Shown one piece after another: positions 21,872 to 37,770 of a DNA stretch of 64,000 nt. Origin of the DNA: an uncultured delta proteobacterium (GTDB lineage Bacteria; Desulfobacterota; Syntrophia; Syntrophales; UBA2185); the NCBI GenBank assembly GCA_963729715.1, contig CAVSPA010000005.1, positions 192,001-256,000 of the forward strand, written 5' to 3'. The notes below the pieces were generated by a model. It was not told the origin of the DNA. It ran no database searches and saw nothing but the letters and a program-made list of their open reading frames with translations. The position numbers and the translations under genes are program-made. Numbering within the stretch: the stretch's first letter is position 1; the number at the start of each line of letters is the position of its first letter.

Positions 21872-22981
21872 TCACTTCGTCATATTGCTGAAGACCGCCC
21901 GCACCCTTCGATTCTTCTGCCTGCCTTCCTTCGTTGCATTGCTCGCAACAGGCTTATCGGGACCGTAGCCCACGGCCTTTAGGCGGGAACTGTCAATACC
22001 AAACTTCTTGACAAGGTATTCTTTTATGCTGTCAGCACGTCGCAGGGATAGCTTAACATTAGCTGCTTCTCTACCGACATTGTCTGTATATCCTTCAATC
22101 ACGGCGGTCGCATTCGGATTTTCCTTCATGAAGTCGGCAACCTTCTTTATTTCATTATTGTATTTTCGCTTCACGATAGCCTTGCCCGTATCGAACTGAA
22201 CCATGAGCTCAATGGAAACTCCTTTAGCTGCCGGTGCTTCTCTCTGAACACCAGTTTCCTTCATGATCTTCCGCTTGCTGGTCAGGAATATTCTTTTCAC
22301 AAAATTGGTCATTTCGGCATCGCCTGCAAGGTTGTCGCCCTTTACAAAAAACCCGCATTCTCCGGCCTGTGCGATCTGCTCAAGGAGCTTAGCTCCGTTT
22401 TTGTCGTCGCCTATCAGGACAGTGTAGATACATAGATTACTGCCATATAGGCTTTTCACGCTCGCGGCGGCCTTCACGGGCGCATTATCCATATCTTCTC
22501 CGTCAGTGAATATTACGAGAGCGATTTTCCCCTGAACAGCTTTCAGGTCGCTGCCTGCCGCCATGATCGCAACATCGAGCGGGCTGTATCCGAACGGGGA
22601 GCTTAAATCTTTTATAACCGCGTCAAGTTTCTCTACATCGTACTTTACAATTCCATACGGTAATTTTGTGACATCAAAATCTGCATAGTTCTGGCCAAAT
22701 GTCCTCAACGCGGCGCTAAGACTGAGATCGGGAATAGTCCTGTTGAAGTTGCTGACCAAGTTTTTTTCAATGATCAATTTCTCGAGGAAGGTATACGGGT
22801 TTCCCATCGAACTGGACTTGTCGAAAATTATGTAGAAATTATTTGCGTTCTGAACATACTGCCCCGACTTCAGCTTCATGCTGAGGTCCTGACTGCCTGC
22901 AAGGACCGGCACCGCGAAAAGGACAAAAGCCAAAAGGGGAAAAACCATTAAACAAACTATTCTTATCCGCTTTTTTGCCAT
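21872..22981 (-). CDS. OmpA C-terminal domain protein with N-terminal vWA domain
   Basis: Signal peptide; DKSSSM and FTDG (MIDAS); FDTGKA, IEGYTDNVG and NRRV. Confidence 0.88.
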   Translation of the reverse strand: MAKKRIRIVCLMVFPLLAFVLFAVPVLAGSQDLSMKLKSGQYVQNANNFYIIFDKSSSMGNPYTFLEKLIIEKNLVSNFNRTIPDLSLSAALRTFGQNYADFDVTKLPYGIVKYDVEKLDAVIKDLSSPFGYSPLDVAIMAAGSDLKAVQGKIALVIFTDGEDMDNAPVKAAASVKSLYGSNLCIYTVLIGDDKNGAKLLEQIAQAGECGFFVKGDNLAGDAEMTNFVKRIFLTSKRKIMKETGVQREAPAAKGVSIELMVQFDTGKAIVKRKYNNEIKKVADFMKENPNATAVIEGYTDNVGREAANVKLSLRRADSIKEYLVKKFGIDSSRLKAVGYGPDKPVASNATKEGRQKNRRVRAVFSNMTK

Positions 22982-23114
22982 CTGATAACCTCCTGCATTA
23001 CTATTGTTAATTAAAGCCAAGAATATTTGTTATTACTCCTGGTCGCTACTCTTGCCGAGAAAATGGTGCTGTCCAACCTGCACTCAGAAGAAAATGATCG
23101 AAGAACCAAATTCT

Positions 23115-23696
23115 CTATTTGCCGGAACGCACCGGAAGTGCCCGGAAGAAGGTGTCGTGTGACTGGTATCGCCAGTTCCGCCGGTGGCCGATGTTGAAAT
23201 TGAAGTAGGAGGCACCGGAACCGCGTGTTTCGGATGCCCACATCCATGTACATGTGAGATGAATTAGTTCCGTTAAATGGACGTTATACCCACAGTCAGA
23301 CTTATAAGTTTCAGCCAGATCATACAATTCCGCCAATTCATCCTGCGTCGGTAACCGCCAGTCCGTAAAATCGCCCCCACGATAATTCTTGCAATAGTTA
23401 TTGGCACCCTGCCAGTTGATATCCGCCCCATTGTCATTCGCCGCCCATGTCAGGCCGGTCTTGGTGTCCAACACAGTTCCGTCGCCTTTTGCAATAAACC
23501 GAGCGTCGTTATTATCTTGTGCCTGTAATTGTCCAGAAAAGACACAGACAAACAGAAAAGTGGCAAATGTGAGTCTTATGAGCAACGATCGCATTATATT
23601 TATTGAAAGCGAGATTTTTTCAATTCGTGTGTATTGCGCGAGAAGACGCAAATCTTTTTCATAATACAACTCCCCCTTTAAAAGTGCTTGGCTCAC
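23115..23696 (-). CDS. DUF1566 (Lcl-type) domain secreted protein; true start may be 23594
   Basis: GDGTVLDTKTGLTW, A..YC, DWRLPT..EL and WASE. Confidence 0.85.
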   Translation of the reverse strand: MSQALLKGELYYEKDLRLLAQYTRIEKISLSINIMRSLLIRLTFATFLFVCVFSGQLQAQDNNDARFIAKGDGTVLDTKTGLTWAANDNGADINWQGANNYCKNYRGGDFTDWRLPTQDELAELYDLAETYKSDCGYNVHLTELIHLTCTWMWASETRGSGASYFNFNIGHRRNWRYQSHDTFFRALPVRSGK

Positions 23697-23767
23697 TTTT
23701 CGAAAATAGCCAATTAAATCCTTTTCCCCTAAAAGTGAGCCCTGGACAAGCCACTTTTACCGGCGTA

Positions 23768-24340
23768 TTATTTAGTGCCTGCCATCGTAATTACTACAAA
23801 ATGATCCCTGCGGTTTTTCGCCCAGGCCGCCTCATTATGCCCTGGATCCAGCGGTTTTTCCTTCCCATAACTGACTGTTTTGATCCTTTTCTTTCCTATG
23901 CCCAGGTCGACAAGATAATTCATCGCGGCATTTGCCCGTCTATTCCCAAGGGCTAGATTGTATTCGGCGGTGCCTCTTTCGTCGCAATTACCTTCGATTC
24001 TGACCTTGTATTTTCCATTCTTCTTCAGCCAGTCGGCTATCTTATTAAGCGATACCCGTTCGCCCGCTTTGAGATCGTATTTGTCAAAATCGAAATGTAC
24101 GTCTGAAAATTCCATTCCACCTTCGGCGACTGCTTCCTTCTTGGACTGCTGCTCCGTCGACTGCTGAGGTGTAGCCATTACAGCCTTCTTCGCCTGATCC
24201 GGCGATTCACCCGGCTTTGCCGCTTGTGCCTGAACCGTCGGCGGTTCGGCAGATGTCTGTTTGATGGCCGACTTTGAACACCCCCAAAGCACGAATCCCG
24301 CAATAGTAAAAACAATCAGCGCCACAAAAAACCTTTTCAT
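23768..24340 (-). CDS. pal: Peptidoglycan-associated lipoprotein (copy 1)
   Basis: Lipobox LWGC; FDFDKY, EGNCDERGTAEYNLALG, SYGKEKP and AWAKNRR. Confidence 0.93.
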   Translation of the reverse strand: MKRFFVALIVFTIAGFVLWGCSKSAIKQTSAEPPTVQAQAAKPGESPDQAKKAVMATPQQSTEQQSKKEAVAEGGMEFSDVHFDFDKYDLKAGERVSLNKIADWLKKNGKYKVRIEGNCDERGTAEYNLALGNRRANAAMNYLVDLGIGKKRIKTVSYGKEKPLDPGHNEAAWAKNRRDHFVVITMAGTK

Positions 24341-24407
24341 ATATGACCTCCTTGTAGTAAAGTTATTTCTGAAATAGTCTATTTAGAGGAAATTGTCAAT
24401 TGATTTT

Positions 24408-24453
24408 TGCTTAAATGATTGGTATATAAATTCATACACAAATGATTGGCATA
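24408..24453. promoter_or_regulatory. Two copies of a putative MarR operator in the pal1/marR1 divergent promoter
   Basis: TGCTTAAATGATTGGTATA (24408-24426) and TACACAAATGATTGGCATA (24435-24453). Confidence 0.65.
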
Positions 24454-24465
24454 TAAATATCTTTA

Positions 24466-24987
24466 ATGAGGAGACTTATGACAGCAAAATCGACATTAAT
24501 GTCAGATATTATGGATGACATCAGGCGAGTCTTCAAGGCCGTAAACGACCAATCGAAAAGGGCGGAACACGAAACCGGCATTACGGGCCCTCAGCTCTGG
24601 ACGATTAAAGTCATCACCGAGTCGTCCCCCACAAATCTTAAGGACCTTGCAAGCAGGATGTTTGTACACCCTGCCACGGTTGTCGGAATAATTGATCGGC
24701 TCGAAGCGAAGGGACTGGTGACAAGAACACGGTCAAAAGGCGATCGGCGCAATGTCGCGATCGATCTGACCAATTCCGCGCGGAGACTTGTTGCCGGATC
24801 CCCGGAGGTGGCTCAGGGGTTATTGCTAAAGGGGCTTAGGAGTTTATCTGCAAGTGAATTGGATAATTTGGCTGATTGCCTCAGAAAGCTGGTGAAAATC
24901 CTCCATGCGCAGAAACTTCCCCCTCAGCTTATGGTTTCCCCAGACGTCAATCTTCCGAGAAGAAGACGGAATAAGGATACAAACTAA
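24466..24987 (+). CDS. MarR family transcriptional regulator (copy 1)
   Basis: GITGPQLW, HPATVVGIIDRLE, DRR and LT wHTH pattern. Confidence 0.93.
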   Translation: MRRLMTAKSTLMSDIMDDIRRVFKAVNDQSKRAEHETGITGPQLWTIKVITESSPTNLKDLASRMFVHPATVVGIIDRLEAKGLVTRTRSKGDRRNVAIDLTNSARRLVAGSPEVAQGLLLKGLRSLSASELDNLADCLRKLVKILHAQKLPPQLMVSPDVNLPRRRRNKDTN

Positions 24988-25282
24988 ATACATGTTATAT
25001 CAAAAATGGGGCAAATCTCAGATTCTATTTGACAGTGGTTGTGAACGTTACATAGATAATGAAGTATCATATGGAGGAATCTAATTTATTACCAATATTG
25101 TCTCGCCAGATTTACTCCTGCACTCGCTGAAAGGCTTCTCTCATTAAGGAAGTGCGACCTTTAATTATTTTCAAGATCAATCTATCTCCAGATTCCCTAG
25201 AGATCAAAATATATCGTCGACTTTAATGGTTGTATAATTGAGCGTGGAGGTATGTCGGAAACGGTCTCAGTCTTTATCGTTC

Positions 25283-26725
25283 TCAATTCGTATCATTTGA
25301 GTTATTTCGGTTTCTTTTTTGATCTCTTCCTTTTTTCAGTTTTTCCGCAATCGTCATTACTGTTCCGATGAGGCTCTTTTCCCTGCGTTTAAACAGGGCC
25401 TTGACACTTACCACTTCTTTGCCGAGTTCAACTTCTACGGAAGCAGATTTTTTTAGGGCCAGGATCTGGGAAGGATAGACACTCCTGTGTCCTGTGATCA
25501 AAAAACTGATCACGCAAGAGATGGCGGCGTAGGGGGCGATGCTCGCCCCGAAAAGTTCAATGGCCAATATGCTTGCTGCAATGGGCGTGTTGGCCGCACC
25601 TGCCAGGACACTGACAAGGCCGATTGCAGAAAAAGTCGCCACATCCAACCCAAAAATTTGACCGAAGAGATTTCCAGAGCTCGATCCAACAAAAAATATG
25701 GGCGTTACGATACCTCCGCTTCCCCCGAAAGCGAGAGAAATGCTCGTGAAAAGGCTTTTGATGATAAATGAATACCAGTGAATGGATTCTCCATTTAGTG
25801 CAGATTGAATGGTCCCCAGACCGAGACCGAGATAGTCTTTTGAAAATGCAAAAGTCAACCCAACCAGGATGAAGCCGCCTATGATACCCTTCAGCGGGGC
25901 CCACACCTTGAATCTTTCCGCTGCTTTTTCCCCTGCCTTCAGGGCGCCGACGAGAAAAGCTGAACAAAAACCAAAGAAGATTCCGGCGATGACGACCTGC
26001 ACAAAAAATATCTCTTTCACAGCGGGCACGCAATTCAGTGCGTGATAGAAATAGGTTATTCCGAGACTTGATGAAATATAGTAACTCACAATCCCGGCAA
26101 CGAAGGACGGCAATAGGACATCATACAGCAGACTTCCCACAAAAAGAACTTCGACCCCGAATATGGCGCCGGCTATAGGTGTTCCGAAAACTGATGCAAA
26201 TCCCGCACTGATGCCGCAAATGACAAGTTTTTTTCGATCACTATCTGCAAATCTTAGCAAGTCGGCAACAATGGATGCAAGCCCCGCGCCGATTTGCGCA
26301 CAGGGTCCTTCCTTTCCTACAGAACCTCCCGAGGCTAGCGTGATGATTGTTGCAACAAGCTTAACAGGAACTACCGCTGCTTTTATTTTGCCGGACCGCT
26401 TGTGAATGGCCTCAATAACCTTTTCCGTACCGTGCCCTTTTGCGTCCGGAGCCAGGTATTTTGTAAGAACAACACTGATGAATAAGGCCAAGGGCATCAG
26501 GAGAAAATAGTATGTATACCGACTGCTGAAAGCAATACTCCAGTTCAGGATTTTCAGAAACACCATTGTGGACAGGCCGACAATGATTCCAATGCCCGTT
26601 GCAAGCACAACCCATTTGAGTACGCTGAGGAAAAGAATGGACTGCTCAACCAAACTCCCTTTCATTTGATTGAAGTGTTCTTTACGATTGGGTCTATTTT
26701 CCATCCGTTGAGGGGTATCAGGCAT
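25283..26725 (-). CDS. ClC chloride channel/antiporter family protein; start may be 26665
   Basis: GHGTE, GSVGKEGP, GISAGFASVFGTP, GGIVTP and AANTP. Confidence 0.93.
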   Translation of the reverse strand: MPDTPQRMENRPNRKEHFNQMKGSLVEQSILFLSVLKWVVLATGIGIIVGLSTMVFLKILNWSIAFSSRYTYYFLLMPLALFISVVLTKYLAPDAKGHGTEKVIEAIHKRSGKIKAAVVPVKLVATIITLASGGSVGKEGPCAQIGAGLASIVADLLRFADSDRKKLVICGISAGFASVFGTPIAGAIFGVEVLFVGSLLYDVLLPSFVAGIVSYYISSSLGITYFYHALNCVPAVKEIFFVQVVIAGIFFGFCSAFLVGALKAGEKAAERFKVWAPLKGIIGGFILVGLTFAFSKDYLGLGLGTIQSALNGESIHWYSFIIKSLFTSISLAFGGSGGIVTPIFFVGSSSGNLFGQIFGLDVATFSAIGLVSVLAGAANTPIAASILAIELFGASIAPYAAISCVISFLITGHRSVYPSQILALKKSASVEVELGKEVVSVKALFKRREKSLIGTVMTIAEKLKKGRDQKRNRNNSNDTN

Positions 26726-26769
26726 ATATTTTTAGAATAAACATATTCCTGGACTTGTCAATTGATTCT

Positions 26770-26790
26770 TGCACAAATGATTGTCGTATA
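26770..26790. promoter_or_regulatory. Putative MarR operator upstream of clc
   Basis: TTGTCAATTGATTCT-TGCACAAATGATTGTCGTATA; same flanking context as at 24393 and 32772. Confidence 0.55.
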
Positions 26791-26859
26791 AATTTCATAA
26801 AGAGGGAATTTCACACAGAGGATTTCTGATAAAATGAATAGATTTTAATAAAATCCGTC

Positions 26860-27330
26860 TTATTGGATCTTTTCTCTCGCCTCATAAAGACATTTGTTTT
26901 CCAAAATTAGATAACTCACGGTATCTGACGATTCAAATCTGAGGATGCACTGTTCCAACCACCGAACCTTGTCATAATGAAATCCTTCTTTTCCATCAAT
27001 TACAACGAACCATTCATTGTCGGCCTCGGCTATGTACGCCAGATGACCGCTGTCAGGGCTGAATGTGAGCGACCCATCGATGATATTATTATAGTTTATG
27101 CCCTCTTTTCCATCATAGGCCACAAAGCACTTCTTGCCGGACTTGTGGATATACGCAACATGTTTCCCGTCAGGACTTAATGCGAGGGATCGTTGATCCT
27201 GAGGCGCGATATCAACGTGACCTATGTATTTCATTGTGAGAACCTTGTTCGCTGCGTTTCCCTCAGCACTGAGTGCGCTGCAGACCAGGAAAAATAAGCA
27301 AAGCACAATTAATAGCGATTTCCTTGGCAT
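26860..27330 (-). CDS. Secreted protein with two WD40/TolB-like blade repeats
   Basis: Signal peptide; LSPDGKHVAY...DGKEG and FSPDSGHLAY...DGKEG; GGAGG RBS. Confidence 0.7.
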   Translation of the reverse strand: MPRKSLLIVLCLFFLVCSALSAEGNAANKVLTMKYIGHVDIAPQDQRSLALSPDGKHVAYIHKSGKKCFVAYDGKEGINYNNIIDGSLTFSPDSGHLAYIAEADNEWFVVIDGKEGFHYDKVRWLEQCILRFESSDTVSYLILENKCLYEAREKIQ

Positions 27331-27624
27331 AAGCACCTCCTGTCTCAATCCGTTACAGTAAAGAAATTTGTAATTAAGCCGGTGTTCTGTTCCTATTCAT
27401 TCAACGATCGATATACCTGTATTGCATAAATAGGGGCGTTATCGAGTGAGCAACTTTACAAAGGAGGTTTTACATCTCAACCCAATCGAAATACGCCCTT
27501 ATTGATTTATGTAGCAATCATTAGTATATAAATCAAGCAAAAAAAGACTTGATCGAAAGGTTGCTTTTCTAAATGGGCTTTTCCTTATTTATGAGAAAAT
27601 AACATGGTTTTACCAATTGATTTT

Positions 27625-27643
27625 TATACAAATAATTGGTATA
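27625..27643. promoter_or_regulatory. Putative MarR operator overlapping a sigma70-like promoter upstream of the SHOCT/P-II-like/STAS genes
   Basis: TATACAAAT-A-ATTGGTATA, a near-perfect palindrome, lying between TTGATT and TATATA with a 17-nt spacer. Confidence 0.7.
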
Positions 27644-27834
27644 TAAATATTACAAATTCGTGAATGCCGAGCGAGGCCGGCAGCGGGTTGGATACTCTTT
27701 CCCTTGTGCTGGTAGTTGCCAATGGCATCGAACCCGGAGGTCACACGAAGCTGCTGGAGAAACAATTCGAAATGAAAGAGTAGCTGGGCAGTTAAAGAAG
27801 GCGTTCGATGCCATGGAATGAGGAGGTCACGAGG

Positions 27835-28152
27835 ATGAAAAAATGCTTTGAATTATCGCTAATAATAACCGGCTTGCTTGTGTCCTGCGGTGAAGGTTAC
27901 TATGGCCCTCACGGTCACGGCGGGTGGGGTCCGATGATGCATTACGGATTTGGATATGGAGGGATGTTTATGTGGATAATATTCCTGATCGTAATTGGAT
28001 TGCTGATCTATTTCATTCTTCAGTCCCAGAAAACGAAGGGCCAGACACCGACACTGCATGAAAGTCCCCTGGATATCCTGAAGAGACGCTACGCAAAAGG
28101 AGAAATTGTAAGGGAAGAATATGAGAGAATGAAAAAAGGCCTTGAAGGATAG
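27835..28152 (+). CDS. SHOCT-domain membrane lipoprotein with His/Met/Gly-rich N-terminus
   Basis: LLVSC lipobox; HGHGGWGPMMHYG; one TM; PLDILKRRYAKGEIVREEY. Confidence 0.85.
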   Translation: MKKCFELSLIITGLLVSCGEGYYGPHGHGGWGPMMHYGFGYGGMFMWIIFLIVIGLLIYFILQSQKTKGQTPTLHESPLDILKRRYAKGEIVREEYERMKKGLEG

Positions 28153-28238
28153 ACCTATTGATCTTTCTATGTCCTTTGTTGCATTTCATCTTAATGAGGG
28201 TCGTGGCCTGCAGGGATATGTAAAGAGAGGAGAACATT

Positions 28239-28541
28239 ATGAAGATGGTCATCGGTATCGTTAGAGCAACATGTCTTGGAAGGGCGGTGAAAGAGTTAGA
28301 GAAAATTAACGTCCGCTGTATGACAATCTCCGCGGTCAAAGGGATCGGTGAACAGGTAACATTAAATAAGCCGTATGCTATTCATAATATGATACAAATT
28401 ATCGTACCTGATGAGAAAGTTGATGAAGTTAACAATGTGATCGTGAATTTTACCCGAACCGGTATGGCAGGTGATGGTATTGTTGCCGTGAGCCCGATAG
28501 ATTACATGATAAAAATAAAGTCGAAGGAACGGTTGGAATAG
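28239..28541 (+). CDS. Non-canonical P-II family protein (short T-loop)
   Basis: MK.VIGIVR, VKGIG and RTGMAGDGIV. Confidence 0.85.
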   Translation: MKMVIGIVRATCLGRAVKELEKINVRCMTISAVKGIGEQVTLNKPYAIHNMIQIIVPDEKVDEVNNVIVNFTRTGMAGDGIVAVSPIDYMIKIKSKERLE

Positions 28542-28587
28542 TGGCAGGTAGCTCAATGCCTGCCAGTATTTACTCGTTTGATACTTA

Positions 28588-28968
28588 TTGCTCAAGGACA
28601 CTTTCATGTTGGAAATCATACAGGATATGCCGGATAACGTCGTGGCTGTCAGGGCAAGCGGAAAAGTTTCCGGCAAGGATTACGATGACGTCCTCATCCC
28701 TGCTGTCGAAGGTGGCATTAAGAGACATGGGAAGGTCCGCGTGTTCTATCAATTGACCCGTGATTTCTCAGGCTTCACAGCCGAAGCCATGTTCGATGAT
28801 GCCAAGCTTGGCATACGTCACCTAACCGAATTCGAAAAGATAGCAGTAGTTACCGACGCGGACTGGACATCGAGGACTGTTCAATTCTTCTCGCTTTTTA
28901 TACCCTGCCCGGTCAAAATCTTTGGCAACAATGACATGTCTGAGGCGAAGGCTTGGCTAATCGAGTAA
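28588..28968 (+). CDS. STAS/SEC14 (SpoIIAA-like) domain protein
   Basis: ASGKVSGKDY, DDAKLG, KIAVVTD and EAKAWL. Confidence 0.85.
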   Translation: MLKDTFMLEIIQDMPDNVVAVRASGKVSGKDYDDVLIPAVEGGIKRHGKVRVFYQLTRDFSGFTAEAMFDDAKLGIRHLTEFEKIAVVTDADWTSRTVQFFSLFIPCPVKIFGNNDMSEAKAWLIE

Positions 28969-29086
28969 CTTTTTACAAGATAGCCCGAAGATCGGAGGGA
29001 AAGAGAGTGTCAAGAAAGTAGTTGGTATTGAAGTTCCTTTTATATTTAACACCGTATCTAAATTATGCGCATGGGAGTTACGGCAA

Positions 29087-29923
29087 TTGAATAAATTTAT
29101 TCTTTTTATTATGATACTTTGTTCTTTCTTTTACACAGGATGCGCGACAACTGTTGACCTGCAAGATACTCGGCGGATGTTTGGCGAGGAAATTGGCGCC
29201 CTGCATGAAGAGAATGCCGGCATACATAAGGATATGGAAAAGAACGATCAGGCAATAGCGGATATACATAAGAGGATTGCCGACATTGCGGCGGACGTAA
29301 CCGAAATCAGAGAAGACATGGAGAATTTGAAGGGAGATCGTGAGATACTCGGAAAAGGTGAGTCTGACTTAAAAGCGGAGTTTCTTCGTAAGAACAAGGA
29401 ATTGACTGATATAAGGAACCAATTTGATCAACTGTCTGTCCACATGAGGGCCATAGAGAAACTTCTTGAGATTGGGAGTGGCGCCAATCAAGCTCCGAAG
29501 GGCGAGAAAGTCATCAGCGACGATTCAAAAAGTGCATTGCCCGGAAAGACGGAAACGGAATTGGCTTATGACTCGGCTTATGAAGCCTTCAAGGAAGAAA
29601 AGTATGAGAAGGCTCGAGAAAGATTTCAAATCTTTCTGAAGCAATATCCAAACACCGAGTATTCTGACAGCGCTCAATTCTGGATTGGCGAGTGTTACTA
29701 TTTTGAAAGGAAATACGAACAAGCGATCTTGGAATACGAGAAAGTGATAAAGAACCATCCACAGGGCAACAAGGTGCCGCATGCCTTGCTGAAACAGGGG
29801 TTTGCTTTTCTGAATCTGGGCGATAAGTCAAGCGCAAAACTCCTCCTGGAGCAGGTTGTCAATAACTATCCGGACACCAGTCAGGCGCGGATGGCTAGGG
29901 CGAAGCTGGCGGAGATTAAATAG
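29087..29923 (+). CDS. cpoB: Tol-Pal system TPR lipoprotein CpoB/YbgF-like
   Basis: TGC lipobox, coiled coil, TPRs (AQFWIGECYY, ALLKQG). Confidence 0.85.
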   Translation: MNKFILFIMILCSFFYTGCATTVDLQDTRRMFGEEIGALHEENAGIHKDMEKNDQAIADIHKRIADIAADVTEIREDMENLKGDREILGKGESDLKAEFLRKNKELTDIRNQFDQLSVHMRAIEKLLEIGSGANQAPKGEKVISDDSKSALPGKTETELAYDSAYEAFKEEKYEKARERFQIFLKQYPNTEYSDSAQFWIGECYYFERKYEQAILEYEKVIKNHPQGNKVPHALLKQGFAFLNLGDKSSAKLLLEQVVNNYPDTSQARMARAKLAEIK

Positions 29924-30257
29924 CTTGCGAAGCTCGGAACAGTCACGACGGATATACTGGAGTTCGCCGCCAAAGCGATGGCTCTTACGGAAGTATCTCT
30001 TCTCTATGAGCATGAGTACGGCGTTGCTGAGTAAATACTTTCAAGGGTATTATCACCGAAAGTTGCGGCCCCAGAGGAACATAAAGCTTATTAATTAAGG
30101 ACTTCAAAACGATTGCGCGAAAGAAATTTATCGACAAAATTGAAATAACAATTTTGATACTGATACAAAAAGAATTGGCTGCACTATGGCAGTTCTCGGT
30201 CTTGCCGAGGAAAGTCATGGCCATTCATCACTGAAAGTGCGGGCCAGTTTTAGATTC

Positions 30258-31388
30258 TTATTGGCTGATGGCAATACTAATTTCTATCCTGCGGTTCAGC
30301 GCCCTGCCTGACGCAGTACTGTTTGCGGCGACAGGCTGGGACGGGCCAAGACCTTTTGCGACGATACGATCAGTGGATATATTGTGAAAATCTACCAGAT
30401 AGTCCTTCACTTTTCGAGCACGTTTCTCCGTCAGGACCCTCTGTGTTTCCGCCTTGCCAACGTTATCGGAATAGCAGCGGATAGTGACCGCCCCGGCTTG
30501 GTATTTTTCCAGGTAGCTTGCCACTTCATCCAGTGTGGACCTTCCCTTGGTGTGAATTTCGTTCTTGGTTGAGAATATGTTACCGGCTGCTATGTTGATC
30601 AGAATCTCCTTGTCGATCGATTTCACCGTGGCAACGCGAATTTTTACCGCATCAGCAAGCATCGCCTTAGTCTTATCCAACGTCGCCATTTTTTGCTGGA
30701 GTGTCTGAAGTTCGGCTTCCTCTTTCGCCTTCTGTGAGACCAACTGCTGGCCTTTCAAATTCGCTTCGGTCACCTCTTTCTGCTTGACGGCCTCGAGATC
30801 TGCGACTTTCTTTCTTGCTTCTTCCAGCTCCTTCATCTTTTTGCTTTCCAAGATGGCAGCCTCCTGCCTCGCCTGTTCCAATGTTTTCTGTTGGGCCTCC
30901 GCCTCGGCCTTGATTTTTCTCGCCTGTTCCGCTTCGGCTGATTTCCTGTTCAAGACATCCAGCGCCCCCTGATAATCGGCCAAGTCCTTCTCCGTATTCT
31001 TCAATTCTGTCGTCACCACTGTCTTTCTGGCTTTTGCCTCAGCGATCTGGCCTGTGATCCTGGCCATTGTAGCTAGGTACTCGATCTCCTGGGTCTTGGC
31101 TTCGTCGGATATGATGAGCTTCATGCTCCGCGACAAGAGGGAGCGTGAGCGGGCATATTCACTTTCTGCCTGTGCAAGCCAGGATCTGGCCTGAGTCAAA
31201 TCAGCCAGGGCATTTTTTTCCGCTCCGGCCTGACGCGCATTTTCAATGGCCGCCTTCGCCTCCTCGATACCCGTCGCAGGAGAACCGGTCGCGCAGACCG
31301 AAATAGGATTGAAGACAGTTATCCCCCAAATAGCCAAAATGAAGAGGCAATAAACCGCTTGCTTTCTGTAGTTCATGGATTCCTCCAC
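30258..31388 (-). CDS. DUF4398 + coiled-coil + OmpA C-terminal domain protein
   Basis: Signal peptide; A..AGAE..A; long helical region; YSDNVG, GLGPSQPVAAN and NRRIEI. Confidence 0.85.
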   Translation of the reverse strand: MEESMNYRKQAVYCLFILAIWGITVFNPISVCATGSPATGIEEAKAAIENARQAGAEKNALADLTQARSWLAQAESEYARSRSLLSRSMKLIISDEAKTQEIEYLATMARITGQIAEAKARKTVVTTELKNTEKDLADYQGALDVLNRKSAEAEQARKIKAEAEAQQKTLEQARQEAAILESKKMKELEEARKKVADLEAVKQKEVTEANLKGQQLVSQKAKEEAELQTLQQKMATLDKTKAMLADAVKIRVATVKSIDKEILINIAAGNIFSTKNEIHTKGRSTLDEVASYLEKYQAGAVTIRCYSDNVGKAETQRVLTEKRARKVKDYLVDFHNISTDRIVAKGLGPSQPVAANSTASGRALNRRIEISIAISQ

Positions 31389-31391
31389 CTC

Positions 31392-31787
31392 TTACTTAGC
31401 TTTTTCTAAGCGTTGAATCTCGGCTTTGACTTTTTGCAATTCAATTTGAGTCGCCGACAACTTTTCTTGTTCAATCTTCAATTCCGACGATGCCTTGGCG
31501 GACTCTGCGAGGGCCCGAGCCATGTGTGATGCTTGCGAAAACTGGACATCGTCTTTTGCCGAATGGGCACGTTCTGCCTTGTTTAGGAATTCTATGGCTT
31601 CTTTCAGCTTATCCGATGCGTATTTATCGGCCTTTGCAGTTTGTGCTGCCTGGATCGCTGTCTTGGCGTCTATAAATTCCTGTTCATGGGCCGGACTTAA
31701 ACCCTGACCATGGACGGTTCCCGCAAGAGTGAAGATGACGAGAACACCACAAATGATTTGAAATAAATTGAATGTCTTGCTGAACAT
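31392..31787 (-). CDS. DUF4398 domain secreted protein
   Basis: AIQAAQTAKADKYA..L..A; GGAGG RBS before ATG 31787; usual partner of the OmpA gene downstream. Confidence 0.8.
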   Translation of the reverse strand: MFSKTFNLFQIICGVLVIFTLAGTVHGQGLSPAHEQEFIDAKTAIQAAQTAKADKYASDKLKEAIEFLNKAERAHSAKDDVQFSQASHMARALAESAKASSELKIEQEKLSATQIELQKVKAEIQRLEKAK

Positions 31788-31854
31788 GATACCATCCTCC
31801 CATGTAACGTATCTTCCTCTACGCCAAGCGCTACCCTTTGTCCTTATCCGCGCC

Positions 31855-31941
31855 CGCTGACGGTTCGCAGGAGGAGTCTCTCCTCTCGCTCCAGAGGAGC
31901 CCAAGGATTGCTCTCCCTGCGAAAACCGTCACACCCCAGCG
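31855..31941. other. Branched stem-loop in the leader of the DUF4398-OmpA genes
   Basis: TGACGGTT/AACCGTCA, CGCAGG/CCTGCG and inner CTCCTCT/AGAGGAG stems. Confidence 0.6.
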
Positions 31942-32136
31942 TCTGTGGAAGGGGATTCCGTATGCTTTCGGTATATCTACCGTCGCTTTTTCTTCAATAC
32001 AAATCCTGGCACTATGCATTTTGCGAGGATTGCAAGATGGGCCCTCCTGTCACTATGACCCTCTTCCGGATCCCAAGGAAACTTTGTGGAAAGGAAGAGA
32101 CGTCCTTTCAGCGGCTATATCACTCCCCTCATAAAA

Positions 32137-32718
32137 CTATTTTGGTTGTGCCAACAGTTGCGTTACGACGAAATGATCTCTCCTGTTTTTTGCCCAGGCT
32201 TCTTCGTTATGTCGAGAATCTAAGGGCTTATCCTTGCCATAGCTGATTGTTTTTATCCTTCTCTTCTCAATACCCAGCTCGACGAGATATTTCATGGCCT
32301 CATCAGCTCGTCTCTGCCCCAAAGCCAGGTTGTATTCTTCCGTTCCTCTTTCATCACAGTTACCCTCGATACGGACATTGTAGGCGACATTATTGGCAAG
32401 CCAGGCTGCCTTCTTTTTTAGCAATTTCCGAGCTTCGGGCTTCAGATTGTAATTATCAAAATCAAAATGAATGTCTTTAGATATACTCGACGCCTGCGCC
32501 GTCATTTCCCCTCCCGTCATTGTGGCTGGTGCTTCTTTTGCGGCAGGACTTTTAGTTGCCTCACTTGCCTTTGCTTCTTGTGCACCAGGCTGTTTTTCAG
32601 CTGCCACATTTTGCTTCGCCACAGATTCCTCCTTCACTATCTCCTTATTGGCACATCCAACGAAAGCGATGAAAAAAAGCGGCAAACTGAACATTAAGAT
32701 GATCAACGATTTTTTCAT
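32137..32718 (-). CDS. pal: Peptidoglycan-associated lipoprotein (copy 2)
   Basis: FVGC lipobox; FDFDNY, EGNCDERGTEEYNLALG, SYGKDKP and AWAKNRR. Confidence 0.93.
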   Translation of the reverse strand: MKKSLIILMFSLPLFFIAFVGCANKEIVKEESVAKQNVAAEKQPGAQEAKASEATKSPAAKEAPATMTGGEMTAQASSISKDIHFDFDNYNLKPEARKLLKKKAAWLANNVAYNVRIEGNCDERGTEEYNLALGQRRADEAMKYLVELGIEKRRIKTISYGKDKPLDSRHNEEAWAKNRRDHFVVTQLLAQPK

Positions 32719-32786
32719 AAGCAACACTCCTTTCGTACTTTTTTGATTTCTTATAGTACACAAAAATACATTTGTCAATTGATTTA

Positions 32787-32805
32787 TGCACAAATAATTT
32801 GTATA
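32787..32805. promoter_or_regulatory. Putative MarR operator in the pal2/marR2 divergent promoter
   Basis: TGCACAAAT-A-ATTTGTATA preceded by TTGTCAATTGATT. Confidence 0.7.
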
Positions 32806-32851
32806 TCAATTAAAAATATGATAACTATATTCTCGGAAACCAACAAAAGGA

Positions 32852-33382
32852 GTGAAAATGACAAATAAATCCCTGAAAGTATCAATAATCATTGACAACA
32901 TTCGTAGAGTATTCAAGGCAGTTAATGAACAATCGAAGAAAGCTGAGCATGAAACCGGTATAACAGGACCTCAACTTTGGGCTATCAAAATTATCGGTGA
33001 CTTATCTCCTGTCCGGGTGTCTGACCTTGCGAGACATATGTACCTTCATCCGGCTACGGTAGTCGGAATACTCGACCGCCTTGAATCAGGGAAACTTGTA
33101 AAAAGAGTACGTTCAAAAGACGACAAACGGGTCGTAAGAGTAAGACTAACGGATGACGGCAAGAAGCTTATTGCCAAGGCTCCGCAGGTAGCTCAGGGGT
33201 TGCTCGTTGCCGGACTCGAAGTATTGCCCGCTAAAAGACTCCAGGAACTGGATTCCGCTCTCGAAGAGCTTGTGCACATCTTAGGAGCGCAGCAGCTACC
33301 CCCGCAATTGATCCTCTCGCCGGAGGTGAATGTACCGCGGCTGAAGGCAACAGATAATAAGAAGGGATATGACCGAACATGA
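32852..33382 (+). CDS. MarR family transcriptional regulator (copy 2)
   Basis: Paralog of 24466-24987: IRRVFKAVN, HETGITGPQLW, HPATVVGI and LPPQL. Confidence 0.93.
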   Translation: MKMTNKSLKVSIIIDNIRRVFKAVNEQSKKAEHETGITGPQLWAIKIIGDLSPVRVSDLARHMYLHPATVVGILDRLESGKLVKRVRSKDDKRVVRVRLTDDGKKLIAKAPQVAQGLLVAGLEVLPAKRLQELDSALEELVHILGAQQLPPQLILSPEVNVPRLKATDNKKGYDRT

Positions 33383-33896
33383 TGAATAAAATGATTCTTG
33401 GGGTATTAATTTCGATCAGCATACTGATGTTATTTTCTGAGGCATATCTCGACATTCGTAGTTTGTTCCATTTGTTTTCTTAATAAAAATGGAACTAATT
33501 TGTCGTGATCTGGACAATATAGCCAAAATATTTGACAACGCCAAATCTCTGCTCGCATAGAGTTTTTCTCCCGGCCACAACCCTTATTTTGCGTGATTTC
33601 ATAGCAGTGATCAGGTACTTACCCCTCTTTCAAAATAATTATCAAACAAGACCATATCTCAGTACATGCTGACATTCTGTCAATTTTTTCCTTGACACAA
33701 AACCCTCTTTCTGATAGTCGAGCGTCACATATGTTCAAACGGACATATTCTTCAATCAGGCATAGTCCCCTTTATCTGATGGCCGCACTGTAATTTCAAG
33801 CACTTCATATGACGAGGGACCGTATCAGCTACGTTACTGATATATGCCAAAATCAAAATAAAAAAGGATTTCTTTGGAAAGGAGGCGTGGCAAACG

Positions 33897-35678
33897 ATGA
33901 CGATGGTCAATATTAACATAAATGGCCAGAAAGTCAGTGCACCAGCCGGCAGTACCATTCTTAAGGCCGCAAAGCAGGCAGGCATTGACATCCCTACGCT
34001 CTGTGACCATCCTGCTTTGATTCCAGTCGGTGCTTGCCGAATATGCGTTGTGGAGGTTAAAGGACAGCGCACCCTGATCACGGCATGTACTTTCCCTATC
34101 TCTGAGGGAATGGAAATACAAACAGAATCACCAGAGGTAATTAAAGCGCGAAAATTAGTCCTTGATCTGCTATTTTCAGAAAGAAACCATGTCTGTCCGA
34201 TCTGTGAGACATCCGGAAACTGCGAATTACAGGACATGGGGTACCGCTATGGTCTCAATCACTGGACTTACCCAGCATTCACAAAGCCCTTCCCCATAGA
34301 TGCCACACACAAGTTCCTGTTCATGGAACATAACCGCTGTATCTTGTGTGGAAGGTGTGAGCGCGGATGCAGTGACGTCGTGGCCAACCACACTCTCGGC
34401 TTGCGAAATCGCGGCAATCAATCCATGATCCACTGCGACGCAAATATGCCCTGGGGTGAGTCTACATGTATCTCTTGCGGCACTTGCCTGCAGTTATGTC
34501 CAACTGGCGCCATATCCGATAAGCGAAGCGCCTTCATGGGCCGTGACATTCAGACGGAACATACAAAAAGTACTTGCAGCCAGTGCAGTATCGGATGCGG
34601 TATGGAAATAGTCACCCGCGGCGGCAACGTCCTTAAAATCAAGAGCGACTGGGACGCGGAAGTCAACGGTGGGCGGCTTTGCGAATACGGCCGCTTCGAT
34701 CCTTTGTACGATGTACGTAAGCGGATAACCAGCCCCATGCTCCGGCTGAGGGGCAAGCTCGAGCCCGTGAGCTGGGATGAAGCCCTGCAAGCTGTTACTG
34801 AGCGCGTCGGCAAGGCGAGTGCTAAGGATTTAGGGGTGCTTGCTTCGACATACTCTACGAATGAAGCGCTTTATCTGCTTGCCAAGTTATTCCGCCAAGA
34901 ACTGAAAGCAACGAATGTTGGCGTACTGAACGACGTTGCACCGAAGCTGTCCGAAAAGCAAGGCTCGCTTGCTGACATCATTGTAAGCGATGTCATTCTG
35001 GTGGTCGGTTGTGATCCGCTCAAGGATCAGCCGGTTTCCTCTTTCTTTGTCAAGCGCTCCGTTGACAAGGGTGCACGGCTCATTGTGGTGGACAGTAAGG
35101 ACAATGGACTGGCGCCATTCTCCTATATGAATCTCGGGATGGCCGAGATAAGCAAGGCTATCGAAATAGCGGAGCGTGCCGCACATACGGTCGTGCTGTA
35201 TGGCGCAGGTGTCACGGACAAGGCTGCCGCAGCTCTGAAGAAACTCCAGGGGAAGGCTTCCTTCGTGGCAATAGAAAATGGCGTCAATACGCGGGCGGCA
35301 GCGGCCTTGGGTCTGAATAATGGGTTTAAGCCGTCCGGCGTCAAAGTGCTCTTCGCATTGGTCGGTGAGCAAAAGATGGGCGGGGAAGACATCACCAAAA
35401 ATGTTGATAAGAAGGCGTTTGTCATAGCGCAGGCCAGTTTCGTATCTCCTCTCACAGAACGGGCCGATGTCGTTCTGCCTATGGCCGTATGGTCAGAAAG
35501 GTCTGGAAGCCTGACGAATACCGAAGGGCGCGTGCTGAAAGTCAACAAAGCAACAGAACCTAAGGGAGAAGCCAAACCTGACTGGGAGGTTCTCTCTTTA
35601 CTGGCAAACAAACTGGGAAAGAAGCTTGGCACTTCGTTGAATGAGATTTCAGCTCGGGCAACCCAGGAACTCAAGTGA
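33897..35678 (+). CDS. HoxU/NuoG-like FeS subunit with a degenerate molybdopterin-oxidoreductase-like C-terminus
   Basis: PTLC...ACRICVV (2Fe-2S); HVCPIC...C; CILCGRC; CISCGTC..CP; CSQCSIGC...C; ADVVLP..E..GSLTN.EGR. Confidence 0.88.
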   Translation: MTMVNININGQKVSAPAGSTILKAAKQAGIDIPTLCDHPALIPVGACRICVVEVKGQRTLITACTFPISEGMEIQTESPEVIKARKLVLDLLFSERNHVCPICETSGNCELQDMGYRYGLNHWTYPAFTKPFPIDATHKFLFMEHNRCILCGRCERGCSDVVANHTLGLRNRGNQSMIHCDANMPWGESTCISCGTCLQLCPTGAISDKRSAFMGRDIQTEHTKSTCSQCSIGCGMEIVTRGGNVLKIKSDWDAEVNGGRLCEYGRFDPLYDVRKRITSPMLRLRGKLEPVSWDEALQAVTERVGKASAKDLGVLASTYSTNEALYLLAKLFRQELKATNVGVLNDVAPKLSEKQGSLADIIVSDVILVVGCDPLKDQPVSSFFVKRSVDKGARLIVVDSKDNGLAPFSYMNLGMAEISKAIEIAERAAHTVVLYGAGVTDKAAAALKKLQGKASFVAIENGVNTRAAAALGLNNGFKPSGVKVLFALVGEQKMGGEDITKNVDKKAFVIAQASFVSPLTERADVVLPMAVWSERSGSLTNTEGRVLKVNKATEPKGEAKPDWEVLSLLANKLGKKLGTSLNEISARATQELK

Positions 35679-35692
35679 AAGGAGAATCGACG

Positions 35693-36238
35693 ATGGCAAA
35701 AGTTAAGATTGCCACTGACTGGCTGGCTGGCTGTGCAGGATGTCACATGTCGATATTGGACATTGATGAGCGCATTGTGAAGCTGTTGGAAGCGGTGGAA
35801 ATTACATCCAGTCCCGTAACGGACTTGAAACATCCGCCGAAGGAAGGTGTGACTGTTGGTATACTTGAAGGAGCAATCTGCAATACACATAATGTGGAAG
35901 TGGCGAAGGTTATGCGCGAACGCTGCCAGATTCTGATAGCCCTTGGGGATTGTGCTACTTTTGGAAATGTCCCGGCTATGCGCAATTTGTGCGGCACAGC
36001 TGAGGCATTGAAGCGCGCGTATTTGGACACGGAAAGCGTCGTGGACGGACTCATTCCTGACTCACCGGAGCTTGGAAAGCCGCTTGAAATGGTTACAGGC
36101 GTTGATAAGGTGGTGAAGGTCGATCTCTTTATACCTGGCTGCCCTCCGAGCGCTGATGCTATCTTTCATGCATTATCGGAACTGCTCGCAGGACACGTGC
36201 CAGTAAGTTTCCCACCCCCATTATTCAAATATGATTAG
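35693..36238 (+). CDS. hoxY: [NiFe]-hydrogenase small subunit, HoxY-like
   Basis: WLAGCAGCHMS, GDCA and IPGCPP; short single-cluster form. Confidence 0.9.
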   Translation: MAKVKIATDWLAGCAGCHMSILDIDERIVKLLEAVEITSSPVTDLKHPPKEGVTVGILEGAICNTHNVEVAKVMRERCQILIALGDCATFGNVPAMRNLCGTAEALKRAYLDTESVVDGLIPDSPELGKPLEMVTGVDKVVKVDLFIPGCPPSADAIFHALSELLAGHVPVSFPPPLFKYD

Positions 36239-36250
36239 AGGAGAGTAGCT

Positions 36251-37681
36251 ATGGGTGCTAGAAAAATAACTATTGAACCTATAACACGTATCGAGGGTCA
36301 TGGGCGGGTCACTATTCACCTGAATGAAAAGGGCGAGGTGGACCAGACTTTCTTCCACGTTGATGAATTCCGCGGTTTGGAGAAATTCACCGAAGGCCGC
36401 CCATACTTTGAGATGCCGGCGATTACCCAGCGCATTTGCGGTATCTGCCCGGTAAGCCACCACTTGGCCGCAGCCAAGGCCTGCGACGGTGTTGCCCGTG
36501 TGGAATTGCCGCGGCCCGCCAAACTGCTGCGCGAGTTGATGCATATGGGCCAATATATACAATCGCACGGCATGCACTTTTTCCATCTGGCGGCGCCTGA
36601 TTTAGTTTTAGGTTTTGACGCTGATCCGGCCATAAGGAATGTTGTCGGGATTATCCAAGCAGATCCGGAACTGGCGCTGAAGGCAGTGAACCTACGACGT
36701 TACGGACAGCAGGTCATCGAGAGATTGGGTGGGAAACGTATCCATCCAACTTTCGCCGTCCCCGGCGGCGTTAATGCGCCGCTGTCCCCAAAAGATCGTG
36801 ATGCGATGCTTGCTGAATTTGACACGATGGTAGGAATCGCCAAGGTGGCCGTCAGCATCGGCAAGGGCTGGATTGGGGCCAACAAGCCGCTGGTTGACGC
36901 CTTCGCGTCTTTCCCTTCCAACTACATGGGTCTCGTGGATATGGAAGGTGGCCTGCAACTTTACGACGGTGAAATCCGGGTAAAGGATGCGGAGGGCAAC
37001 TTTGTGGCGCAGTTCGAACCGGCTAATTACCTGTCACACGTGGGAGAGCATGTGGAGCCCTGGTCATTCCTCAAGTTCCCCTTCTACCGCAAGTTAGGCT
37101 GGCCGGATGGAACCTATCGGGTGGGACCGCTGGGTAGATTGAATGTTGTGGATAAAATAGGAACGCCTCTTGCCAACGAAGAGCTTAAACTCTTCAAGCA
37201 GATAAACGGCGGCAGGCCTGTTGAAGGCTCTCTCTATTACCACTATGCGAGGTTGATCGAACTTGTCTACGCTCTGGAGCGTCTGGCTCAGTTGCTCGAT
37301 GATCCGGATATCATGTCCAACGATATCCGTACCTATCCCTCCACAGCCCAGATTCCCGGCCAGGGGGTTGGTGTCATCGAAGCCCCGCGGGGGACCCTCT
37401 TCCATGATTACAGTACGGATGAGAACGGCAAATTGACCCGGGTGAATCTTATTGTAGCAACCGGCAACAATAACTGGGCCATGCACACAGCATCGGGGCT
37501 CGTTGCGAGGGCTTTCGTAGATGGCAATAAGCTCACAGAAGGGATGTTGAACAGGGTGGAAGCGGCTATACGCTGCTACGATCCCTGCCTGTCCTGTGCG
37601 ACACATGCATTTGGGAAGATGCCGCTGGAAGTCACGCTTATAGCCGCGGACGGCACAGTCCTGGATCGCATGTCCCGGTAA
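36251..37681 (+). CDS. hoxH: [NiFe]-hydrogenase large subunit, group 3d-like
   Basis: TRIEGHG; L1 RICGICPVSH; EAPRGTL; L2 DPCLSCATH followed by a cleavable AFGKMPL tail. Confidence 0.93.
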   Translation: MGARKITIEPITRIEGHGRVTIHLNEKGEVDQTFFHVDEFRGLEKFTEGRPYFEMPAITQRICGICPVSHHLAAAKACDGVARVELPRPAKLLRELMHMGQYIQSHGMHFFHLAAPDLVLGFDADPAIRNVVGIIQADPELALKAVNLRRYGQQVIERLGGKRIHPTFAVPGGVNAPLSPKDRDAMLAEFDTMVGIAKVAVSIGKGWIGANKPLVDAFASFPSNYMGLVDMEGGLQLYDGEIRVKDAEGNFVAQFEPANYLSHVGEHVEPWSFLKFPFYRKLGWPDGTYRVGPLGRLNVVDKIGTPLANEELKLFKQINGGRPVEGSLYYHYARLIELVYALERLAQLLDDPDIMSNDIRTYPSTAQIPGQGVGVIEAPRGTLFHDYSTDENGKLTRVNLIVATGNNNWAMHTASGLVARAFVDGNKLTEGMLNRVEAAIRCYDPCLSCATHAFGKMPLEVTLIAADGTVLDRMSR

Positions 37682-37712
37682 TATAGAAATCTGATCTCGA
37701 CGAGTCTAACGC

Positions 37713-37753
37713 AAGCGGGTAAACGCAGGTAGTTTACCCGCTTTAACTTTTTT
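37713..37753 (+). terminator. Intrinsic terminator or RNA-stabilising hairpin after hoxH
   Basis: Perfect 12-bp stem AAGCGGGTAAAC/GTTTACCCGCTT followed by TAACTTTTTT. Confidence 0.7.
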
Positions 37754-37770
37754 GGCGTGCTGGGGACCTG

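Follow-up and report, generated by a model that had tools for sequence, protein, structure and literature searches.

The closest described systems to the one that we report here are governed by MarR-type regulators, CosR of Vibrio cholerae and V. parahaemolyticus and EctR/EctR1 of Methylomicrobium alcaliphilum. CosR and EctR are reported to repress at low salt, with ionic strength as the proposed cue (PMC5924519, PMC7876524, PMC13342039). CosR has the consensus TTTGA-NN-TCTAA (PMC8070244). In a 2018 survey, ectR next to ect genes was confined to Alpha-, Beta- and Gammaproteobacteria (PMC5924519), to which a 2026 paper adds the Planctomycetota (PMC13342039). Here we analyze a stretch of 64,000 nucleotides from an uncultured delta proteobacterium of the Syntrophales (contig CAVSPA010000005.1, positions 192,001 to 256,000; the window), which carries two MarR genes, each divergent to a gene for a Pal-like lipoprotein, and six copies of a palindrome. 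Sequence comparison places MarR1 and MarR2 in a sister clade of CosR/EctR, with the palindrome as their putative operator. On balance we think that these regulators hold their own genes and those of a Pal-like lipoprotein and a ClC transporter down at low salt, and that salt would release them.

Two divergent pal<-/->marR pairs had been reported in this window by the first-pass annotation, a model's reading of the letters, and both are present at its coordinates. We list these cassettes and the copies of the putative operator, which spans 29 base pairs (bp), with bit scores from a matrix learnt from relatives only.

23768..24340, minus strand: pal1, an extra Pal-like lipoprotein with lipobox LWGC, divergent to marR1 (TIGR02802 above cut-off)
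24403..24431: operator copy 1, 25.3 bits, two 14-bp units; covers the predicted marR1 promoter and lies 3 bp outside the TTGACA -35 of pal1
24430..24458: operator copy 2, 24.3 bits, tandem repeat of copy 1 (27 bp), immediately 5' of the marR1 ribosome-binding site
24478..24987, plus strand: marR1, 169 amino acids, MarR regulator assigned to the CosR/EctR-sister clade (PF01047; tree)
26765..26793: operator copy 3, 22.2 bits, 3 bp outside a TTGACA-16-TATTCT directed at clc
27505..27533: operator copy 4, 23.0 bits, 5' of the minus-strand gene of a secreted-looking protein; TTGATT on either flank
27620..27648: operator copy 5, 33.4 bits, over the predicted promoter of the SHOCT/P-II-like/SpoIIAA-like genes
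32137..32718, minus strand: pal2, an extra Pal-like lipoprotein with lipobox FVGC, divergent to marR2 (TIGR02802 above cut-off)
32782..32810: operator copy 6, 30.8 bits, over the predicted promoter of marR2, 3 bp outside the TTGACA-17-TATAAG of pal2
32858..33382, plus strand: marR2, 174 amino acids, cysteine-free paralogue of marR1 (PF01047; tree)

The five copies of the palindrome reported by the first-pass annotation are all in place, with 2, 1, 3, 0 and 0 mismatches to its consensus, but the copy at 27505-27533 had been missed, and the element is 29 bp long instead of 19, with ATT at positions ±12 to 14 nearly invariant. Four copies sit after CAATTGATT, as described. The TTGATT and TATA that had been taken for flanking promoter elements are not flanks: TTGATT extends into the site at its left edge, and TATA is contained in the right half. 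In the alignment of the six copies, the symmetry extends to ±14 bp and partially to ±17 bp. Each half of the site is itself a 14-bp palindrome, ATTTGTRYACAAAT, and the 29-bp site is likely two such palindromes at a 15-bp period. The spacing between units is 15 bp in 59 of 83 pairs, a count that holds partly by construction, as the unit was cut from the pair model. The two-unit make-up is supported independently by loci with a single good unit and a dead partner (L068, L075, L077, L079, L095) and by loci with a weak third unit in phase (L056, L062, L103). One dimer per 14-bp unit is likely. An FNR/CRP box, of the form TTGAT-N4-ATCAA, was rejected on inspection of the alignment, where the TTGAT and ATCAA arms stand 25 bp apart.

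A matrix made from the six window sites (35 bp) gives nine genome positions above 31 bits, the next at 18.9 and then none above 13.9, and in leave-one-out the scores of the window sites are equalled by just 7-9 positions in 3.76 Mb. With a matrix from the window sites only, at least 10 bits is reached in the upstream regions of 42 of 77 relatives; of 1540 dinucleotide shuffles, 1 reaches it. De novo searching for palindromes in the upstream regions of 69 dereplicated relatives, with the window sites excluded, returns aTTTnTATACAAATnATTTGTATAnAAAt at 26.8 bits, while shuffled controls, run with 30 seeds instead of 80, reach 11.2 and 11.3 bits. In the 3.76 Mb genome, exactly 10 sites exceed 20 bits on the relatives-only matrix, with copy 5 the top-scoring; the next-best position has 15.1 bits, and three shuffles of the genome in windows of 50 nucleotides have nothing above 15. 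These 10 sites are the six in the window and four on other contigs (C6:4426, C3:163639, C4:673368 and C10:105495).

The site also follows the regulator. It scores above 15 bits at 26/30 loci of the MarR1/MarR2 family and at 0/23 other MarR loci, and 24/30 and 1/23 of them, respectively, have a Pal, LysM or ClC gene no more than about 1.5 kb away. In a pattern search of 61 genomes, among the matches listed, those with 0-1 mismatches are all in regulator-bearing genomes. The shuffles, the relatives-only matrix and the control of other MarR loci exclude a chance or AT-rich artefact. Syntrophales, Geobacteraceae and Nitrospirota all have the motif at members of this MarR subfamily, and relatives occur in other deltaproteobacteria too. 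It is very likely the operator of MarR1 and MarR2, as had been proposed: it follows the subfamily in three lineages, is at none of the 23 other MarR loci, and occurs at marR-free promoters. Homologues of MarR2 are found in 23/61 related genomes and in 16/301 genomes of the phylum, so the module has a patchy distribution. From a scan of GTDB species we obtained 235 relatives, and the counts below rest on the best 78 loci; kinship among the loci makes these counts overstate independence, which weakens the case to that extent.

Most relatives have one or two strong sites per genome, and a genome-wide pattern search in 10 distant genomes gives mostly marR-adjacent sites plus a few two-mismatch matches indistinguishable from chance, so that a large regulon is not shown in them. 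The one or two strong sites of most relatives would suit local autoregulation only, with the extra copies as passive relics of duplicated and decayed marR cassettes. Some sites of this genome do have such an origin. The C6 site belongs to a relic cassette: it is flanked by a pal start and a marR, both truncated, and the segment has 85% identity to cassette 2 over a length of 268 bp. At C10 and C4, the match to the cassette promoter extends over 62 and 47 bp, and these sites are probably relics likewise. Copy 3 may derive from a cassette of the kind seen in relatives, in which clc is divergent to marR. Against this, copies 3, 4 and 5 have counterparts in the relative G008, and most of the changes spare the conserved ATT/AAT triplets; G008 retains four window sites in all, with a single copy at the position of copies 1 and 2. 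Independent sites lie 5' of uspA and of a second pal, and a relic site before an intact gene would still control that gene. We consider purely local autoregulation very unlikely. Passive promoter duplication, which the first-pass annotation had named as a possible explanation, is not the sole source of the similarity, given that marR-free sites recur at promoters and that the motif follows the subfamily.

The C3 site precedes an intact LysM lipoprotein gene on one side and a marR with a 2-bp insertion on the other, so the window MarRs would serve this lysM site in trans. This lysM<-operator->marR cassette (C3:163051-164201, locus L030) is carried by 9/10 same-genus relatives and is otherwise 87% identical in DNA to that of G003; the insertion is either a recent pseudogene or an assembly error. 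The decayed third cassette on C6 (4310-4577) consists of both gene starts only, with the operator intact, near mscS, and is adjoined by CBS-domain peptidase-like and usp-like genes, labelled from sequence reading. C10:105495 and C4:673368 are orphan operator copies, with neighbours labelled in the same way: at one of them, a TTGACA promoter is directed into an IS3-like transposase, with mscL and a vWA-OmpA paralogue nearby, and the other lies between an integrase-like open reading frame (ORF) and a solute-symporter-like gene. Duplication is a habit of this family, with 2-3 regulator copies per locus or genome in Geobacteraceae, Nitrospirota and other members of the phylum (L058, L070, L077 and L181-type, G181 and G290), often with a site for each copy.

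In the window itself, Pal1 and Pal2 score 137 bits each against TIGR02802 (cut-off 125), and both have a lipobox together with an OmpA-C peptidoglycan-binding domain; MarR1 and MarR2 score 57.5 and 46.9 bits against PF01047 (cut-off 24.6). The identities between the two MarRs (60%) and between the two Pals (48%), with MarR1 and MarR2 on separate branches of the tree, indicate that the duplication of the cassettes is not recent. A recent tandem duplication was also rejected by a nucleotide search of each cassette against the genome, which did not report the other. The helix HPATVVG.DRLE, put forward by the first-pass annotation as common to the two MarRs, is indeed shared, but it is family-wide, with most positions at least 90% conserved in 23 homologues.

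A profile search of the MarR1/MarR2 family against 1.84 billion representatives gives 45 matches at E<=1e-30, followed by a tier of more distant MarRs. One MarR of that tier, P0190, matched 22 plasmid records, of which we inspected six distinct ones. The MarR is divergent to ectA in three (L195, L196, L210), beside ectAB-proVWX in L209, and divergent to a BCCT transporter gene in L194; in L193, one short ORF lies between the MarR and the BCCT gene, which is on the opposite strand. The BCCT arrangement is that described for CosR (bioRxiv 10.1101/845297). Searched against 72,556 plasmid records, MarR2 has 10 matches at E<=0.01, from Vibrio (7), Aeromonas (1) and Methylosinus (2). The contexts inspected among them are L193, L194 and L209, described above, and the Methylosinus plasmid L208, in which marR overlaps a chloride-channel gene. 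On the family profile, CosR-like proteins score 86-96 bits and the Methylosinus protein 88; OhrR reaches 60.5-61, and MarR, SlyA and MprA of E. coli reach 26-35. In a tree of 29 rows, from which four long-branch outgroup rows were excluded, the family forms a clade (99/98), CosR/EctR another (99/97), and both together are separated from seven other MarRs (99/97). By these comparisons, the MarR1/MarR2 family is a sister clade of CosR/EctR and does not fall within it, and its closest characterised relatives are CosR/EctR and not OhrR. As a separate observation, in the Sphingobium plasmid L195 a chloride-channel gene lies 3' of EctR, so that the MarR-ClC pairing extends beyond the clade, into Alphaproteobacteria.

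Several results speak against this placement. Alphaproteobacterial EctR scores 57-60 bits, no better than OhrR; the best solved structure on the family profile is an uncharacterised one (4xrf, 76 bits); the identity to CosR-like proteins is no more than 28-37%; upstream regions of CosR/EctR reach at best 9.2 bits on the 29-bp pair matrix; and the 29-row tree holds no true OhrR sequence. The search for one in 201 genomes returned two non-OhrR MarRs only, and the plasmids gave no usable labelled OhrR among the matches listed. A quick 60-row tree, weakly resolved, nests CosR/EctR among family members with unstarred support. The unit core TTTGT-RY-ACAAA and the CosR consensus are of the same length and form and differ at inner positions, and in the spacer between cosR and bcct of Vibrio two weaker unit-like words come after a consensus match, with a period of 15 bp, an anecdotal finding from one locus.

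An OhrR-type peroxide sensor could be suspected from the automatic label 'organic hydroperoxide resistance regulator' of some homologues, from the likewise 15-bp period of the ohrA operator (PMC2651793), and from TACAATT-AATTGTA (PMC5201249), which resembles the alternative register TACAAAT-N-ATTTGTA of our palindrome. We hold this to be extremely improbable. The N-terminal sensing cysteine is missing from both MarR1 and MarR2, the latter wholly cysteine-free; a Cys occurs within 37 residues before the GPQLW motif in just 5/81 family ORFs; the OhrR model NF052638 gives 42-44 bits against a cut-off of 200; and no ohr gene is found among the annotated recurring neighbours. An OhrR identity was rejected on the missing cysteine, this score and the lack of ohr among those neighbours. 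The order of helices and strands in the structure model agrees with the MarR-family structural matches on a MarR fold, and the fold search and the protein atlas give only generic MarR matches. In this single-chain model, residues 151-174 have low confidence, including the conserved PPQLILSPEVN tail. The MarR2 tail AQxLPPQLILSPEVN (residues 144-158) is a conserved C-terminal extension of the usual MarR fold, with a similar A.xID.APxL in CosR/EctR; it is a candidate for tetramer contacts or sensing.

The geometry of the promoters bears on what the regulators would do once bound. In Syntrophales, the site overlaps a TTGATT-17-TATA(T/A) directed at marR, and a TTGAC hexamer of the divergent gene begins 3 bp outside the site at 29/60 loci, as at window copies 1, 3 and 6. 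Overlap with the own or the divergent promoter, a trait of MarR-family operators, is found here computationally. The place of the site shifts in other lineages: it lies immediately 3' of the marR -10 in L020 and L021, and in the distant loci L081, L092 and L103 it lies over the -10 of a leftward promoter, that of pal in two of the three. The palindrome is therefore not a mere promoter look-alike, and in these last three loci it occupies a repressing position. The uspA sites L143 and L144 keep the 3-bp gap with linkers TAG and CTG instead of CAA and without an inward marR-type -35, which means that the spacing survives outside the cassette.

The fixed 3-bp gap to the target -35 is also the position of an activator, a point against repression, although activation is the less probable of the two. 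The regulators might combine self-repression with activation of the divergent pal, clc, lysM and uspA genes from just 5' of their -35, by analogy with lambda CI at PR/PRM. The start of a TTGAC/TTGnCA hexamer 18 bp from the site centre at 29/60 loci, against a background of 0.4% per position, fits such a dual action, and so does the gap kept at L143/L144 despite the change of linker. Near-consensus target promoters, such as the TTGACA-17-TATAAA of L140-L142, should however need no activator, the target -10 is covered by the site in L081, L092 and L103, and CosR and EctR1 are described in the literature as repressors. Dual action is a serious contender, if an unlikely one. Repression of the targets is favoured because their promoters are near-consensus and because, in some lineages, the target -10 lies under the site, and we regard it as probable.

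The targets can be read from the neighbours, counted within 6 kb of the 78 loci (45 loci of at least 11 kb and 33 under 11 kb). Most neighbour genes are directed away from the operator. A ClC gene is present at 40/78 loci, a Pal gene at 31/78, a LysM lipoprotein gene at 10/78, and Pal or LysM at 41/78; the envelope and ion-homeostasis theme of the first-pass annotation finds support in the relatives. The ClCs are of two distant types, 23-32% (11 loci) and 48-82% (28 loci) identical to the window ClC. Enzymes of trehalose or glucosylglycerate type are otsA-like (11/78), mpgP-like (9/78), gpgS-like (8/78), treT-like (8/78) and MGS-like (8/78), where the labels gpgS, treT and otsA are best NCBIfam matches below equivalog cut-offs; any of the five is found at 23/78 loci. 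Usp and MscS genes occur at 9/78 each. Sites free of marR lie 5' of a second pal (L140-L142) and of uspA (L143-L145), in three genomes each; in L144, gpgS is convergent with uspA, hence outside the control of that site. In P0123 (442 amino acids), the regulator is fused to a trehalose-phosphate phosphatase (TIGR00685 above cut-off), and in L163 the marR ORF and otsA lie on one strand and overlap, and clc is divergent. The same arrangement, clc <- operator -> marR-otsA, is seen across a family of related genomes (L162-L164, L166). Two proposed members have no support from the comparison: cpoB and full-length vWA-OmpA are each found at 0/78 loci; Lcl (1/78), DUF4398-OmpA (2/78), SpoIIAA-like (2/78), P-II-like (2/78) and SHOCT (4/78) genes are rare.

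A salt or osmotic role is probable. Aromatic or fatty acids and Cu, which the first-pass annotation had offered as inducers, find no support; the kinship with CosR/EctR and the solute-enzyme, Usp and MscS genes point to salt or osmotic stress. A repressor that answers to a small-molecule ligand, to acid or to general or stationary-phase stress instead of salt would suit the Usp, ClC, MscS, BON-domain and trehalose genes too, and many MarRs are ligand binders. The EctR/CosR cue is itself stated as unresolved (PMC5924519; PMC13342039, 2026). We find such a cue rather unlikely, as no efflux pump or catabolic gene recurs as a divergent target, the closest relatives govern compatible-solute systems, and modelling of CosR is described without a ligand pocket (bioRxiv 10.1101/845297). 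Two observations weaken the salt role: solute-enzyme genes are at 23/78 loci only, and this genome has no otsA-family gene and no match to gpgS, treT or mpgP at E<1e-15. It seems to retain only the envelope and ClC arm.

Under the salt-released repression that we favour, each 14-bp unit would bind one dimer, so that a pair would hold two dimers or a tetramer, and binding would block RNA polymerase at both back-to-back promoters. Rising cytoplasmic ionic strength would weaken binding and lead to release. The output would be extra tethering of the outer membrane to peptidoglycan by a Pal-like or LysM lipoprotein and movement of chloride by ClC; relatives would in addition synthesise trehalose or glucosylglycerate. 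We draw these steps (two dimers, promoter block, salt release) from the analogy with CosR/EctR. A bolder version makes the clade a chloride or ionic-strength switch, in which a tetramer on two units shuts its own promoter and activates the promoters of Pal/LysM, ClC and Usp from a position 3 bp outside the -35. It is speculative and quite unlikely; if true, the ClC pairing (two types here, Methylosinus, Sphingobium) would mark chloride as the CosR/EctR cue.

The remaining genes of this part of the window are as follows.

21872..23582, minus strand: Lcl-domain and vWA-OmpA genes, 3' of pal1 (Pfam)
25283..26725, minus strand: ClC-family anion transporter with motifs GHGTE, GKEGP and GIVTP (PF00654)
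26860..27330, minus strand: secreted-looking protein with short repeats, without Pfam match (NF045725 weak)
27835..28968, plus strand: SHOCT lipoprotein, P-II-like and SpoIIAA-like genes (Pfam)
29087..29923, plus strand: extra cpoB/ybgF copy (TIGR02795 above cut-off)
30258..31787, minus strand: DUF4398 and DUF4398-OmpA genes, 3' of pal2 (Pfam)

The labels that the first-pass annotation had given to these neighbours agree with Pfam and NCBIfam, with the VWA domain under the Pfam cut-off (21.3 vs 23.8). The Lcl-domain and vWA-OmpA genes are possible read-through members of the pal1 transcript, and the SHOCT, P-II-like and SpoIIAA-like genes are likely one transcript that starts at operator copy 5. 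The secreted-looking protein is encoded directly 3' of marR in three relatives (G001, G015, G021), and G001 has the DUF4398 and DUF4398-OmpA genes in identical order. The window cpoB is probably a bystander, at most a distal read-through gene. It has three further homologues in the genome, one inside the canonical tol-pal operon, which lies on contig C14 (labels from ORF reading and homologue search); the window has no tol genes. In all, we count four cpoB/ybgF-like genes (C4:381229, C4:448112, C14:24005 and window 29087) and no fewer than four that are pal-like; in one of the C4 cpoB copies, a tandem peptide repeat is present at the N-terminus.

Apart from the window ClC, whose homologues start near 26665, no ClC was found in the genome. 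In the window ClC, GHGTE, GKEGP and GIVTP stand at the positions of the signature motifs, and GHGTE, GYGIE or GYGTE is found in 24/38 full-length neighbour ClCs. The usual form of these motifs is GSGIP/GREGP/GxFxP, and the ion selectivity of the window ClC may differ from the usual one. Downstream of marR2, at 33897-38274, is a [NiFe]-hydrogenase-type cluster with no operator copy before it; a NuoG/HoxU-like label comes from NCBIfam, and those of the small and large subunits and a maturation protease from sequence reading. The first-pass annotation had called the region an island, a term that the composition does not bear out: the GC content is 45.6% against 48.7% for the genome, and 11% of 317 windows of the same size are equally low. 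We find no tRNA in the window and recognise no integrase in its ORF list; with GC mildly low, a mobile island is unsupported. For window positions 23600-33400, no RNA holder is listed.

The regulon is real and probably undescribed: we found no description of the clade, the operator or the regulon in the literature searched, which lacked most subscription papers. The clade, its operator and the set of targets are new; the mode of regulation is the usual one of MarR proteins. The name that fits best is a CosR/EctR-sister salt-stress switch, and not a ligand-inducible MarR-Pal system. The sharp operator (10 sites per genome, two units, fixed period) and the recurring ClC make dependence on salt or chloride directly testable in this clade, and there are cultured hosts among the relatives (Geomonas, Geomesophilobacter, Pelotalea). 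The prediction is that anaerobic syntrophs and metal reducers meet salt with outer-membrane tethers and a ClC transporter. To our knowledge, a role in salt response has seldom been assigned to bacterial ClCs.

Compared with the described systems, the window shares families with the tol-pal operon (tolQRAB-pal-cpoB), namely Pal and CpoB, but its Pals are additional copies with no accompanying tol genes, and in many relatives Pal gives way to a LysM lipoprotein. OhrR-ohrA of Bacillus subtilis and Agrobacterium has in common the MarR fold, an AT-rich operator and the 15-bp period, and OhrR is the best named match among solved structures (61 bits); the window family differs in that it has no sensing cysteine, no ohr gene seen, another recognition helix and a score far under the family cut-off. 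PA3458, a MarR-type osmoadaptation regulator of Pseudomonas aeruginosa, is a tetramer in solution, and is divergent to an osmoprotectant-related operon; its motif, in part a palindrome, carries TT in positions 1-2 and AA in 11-12 (PMC8070244). By description, its more than 300 loose sites contrast with 10 sharp sites here. CosR and EctR are the nearest characterised systems by profile, plasmid search and tree. They share with the window family the TGPQL helix-2 motif, the AP.xxQ motif, a conserved C-terminal tail and a divergent target gene; the 12-bp palindromic core of TT..AA form is like the CosR consensus, and a ClC gene stands beside the Sphingobium EctR and the Methylosinus homologue. 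In contrast to CosR/EctR, the window family is a separate, well-supported clade at 24-37% identity, it has no ect or BCCT genes among its annotated recurring neighbours, and its putative targets are Pal-like and LysM lipoproteins, ClC, Usp and trehalose/glucosylglycerate-type enzymes. Its operator is a strongly conserved tandem pair over its own promoter, and it is found in Syntrophales, Geobacteraceae and Nitrospirota.

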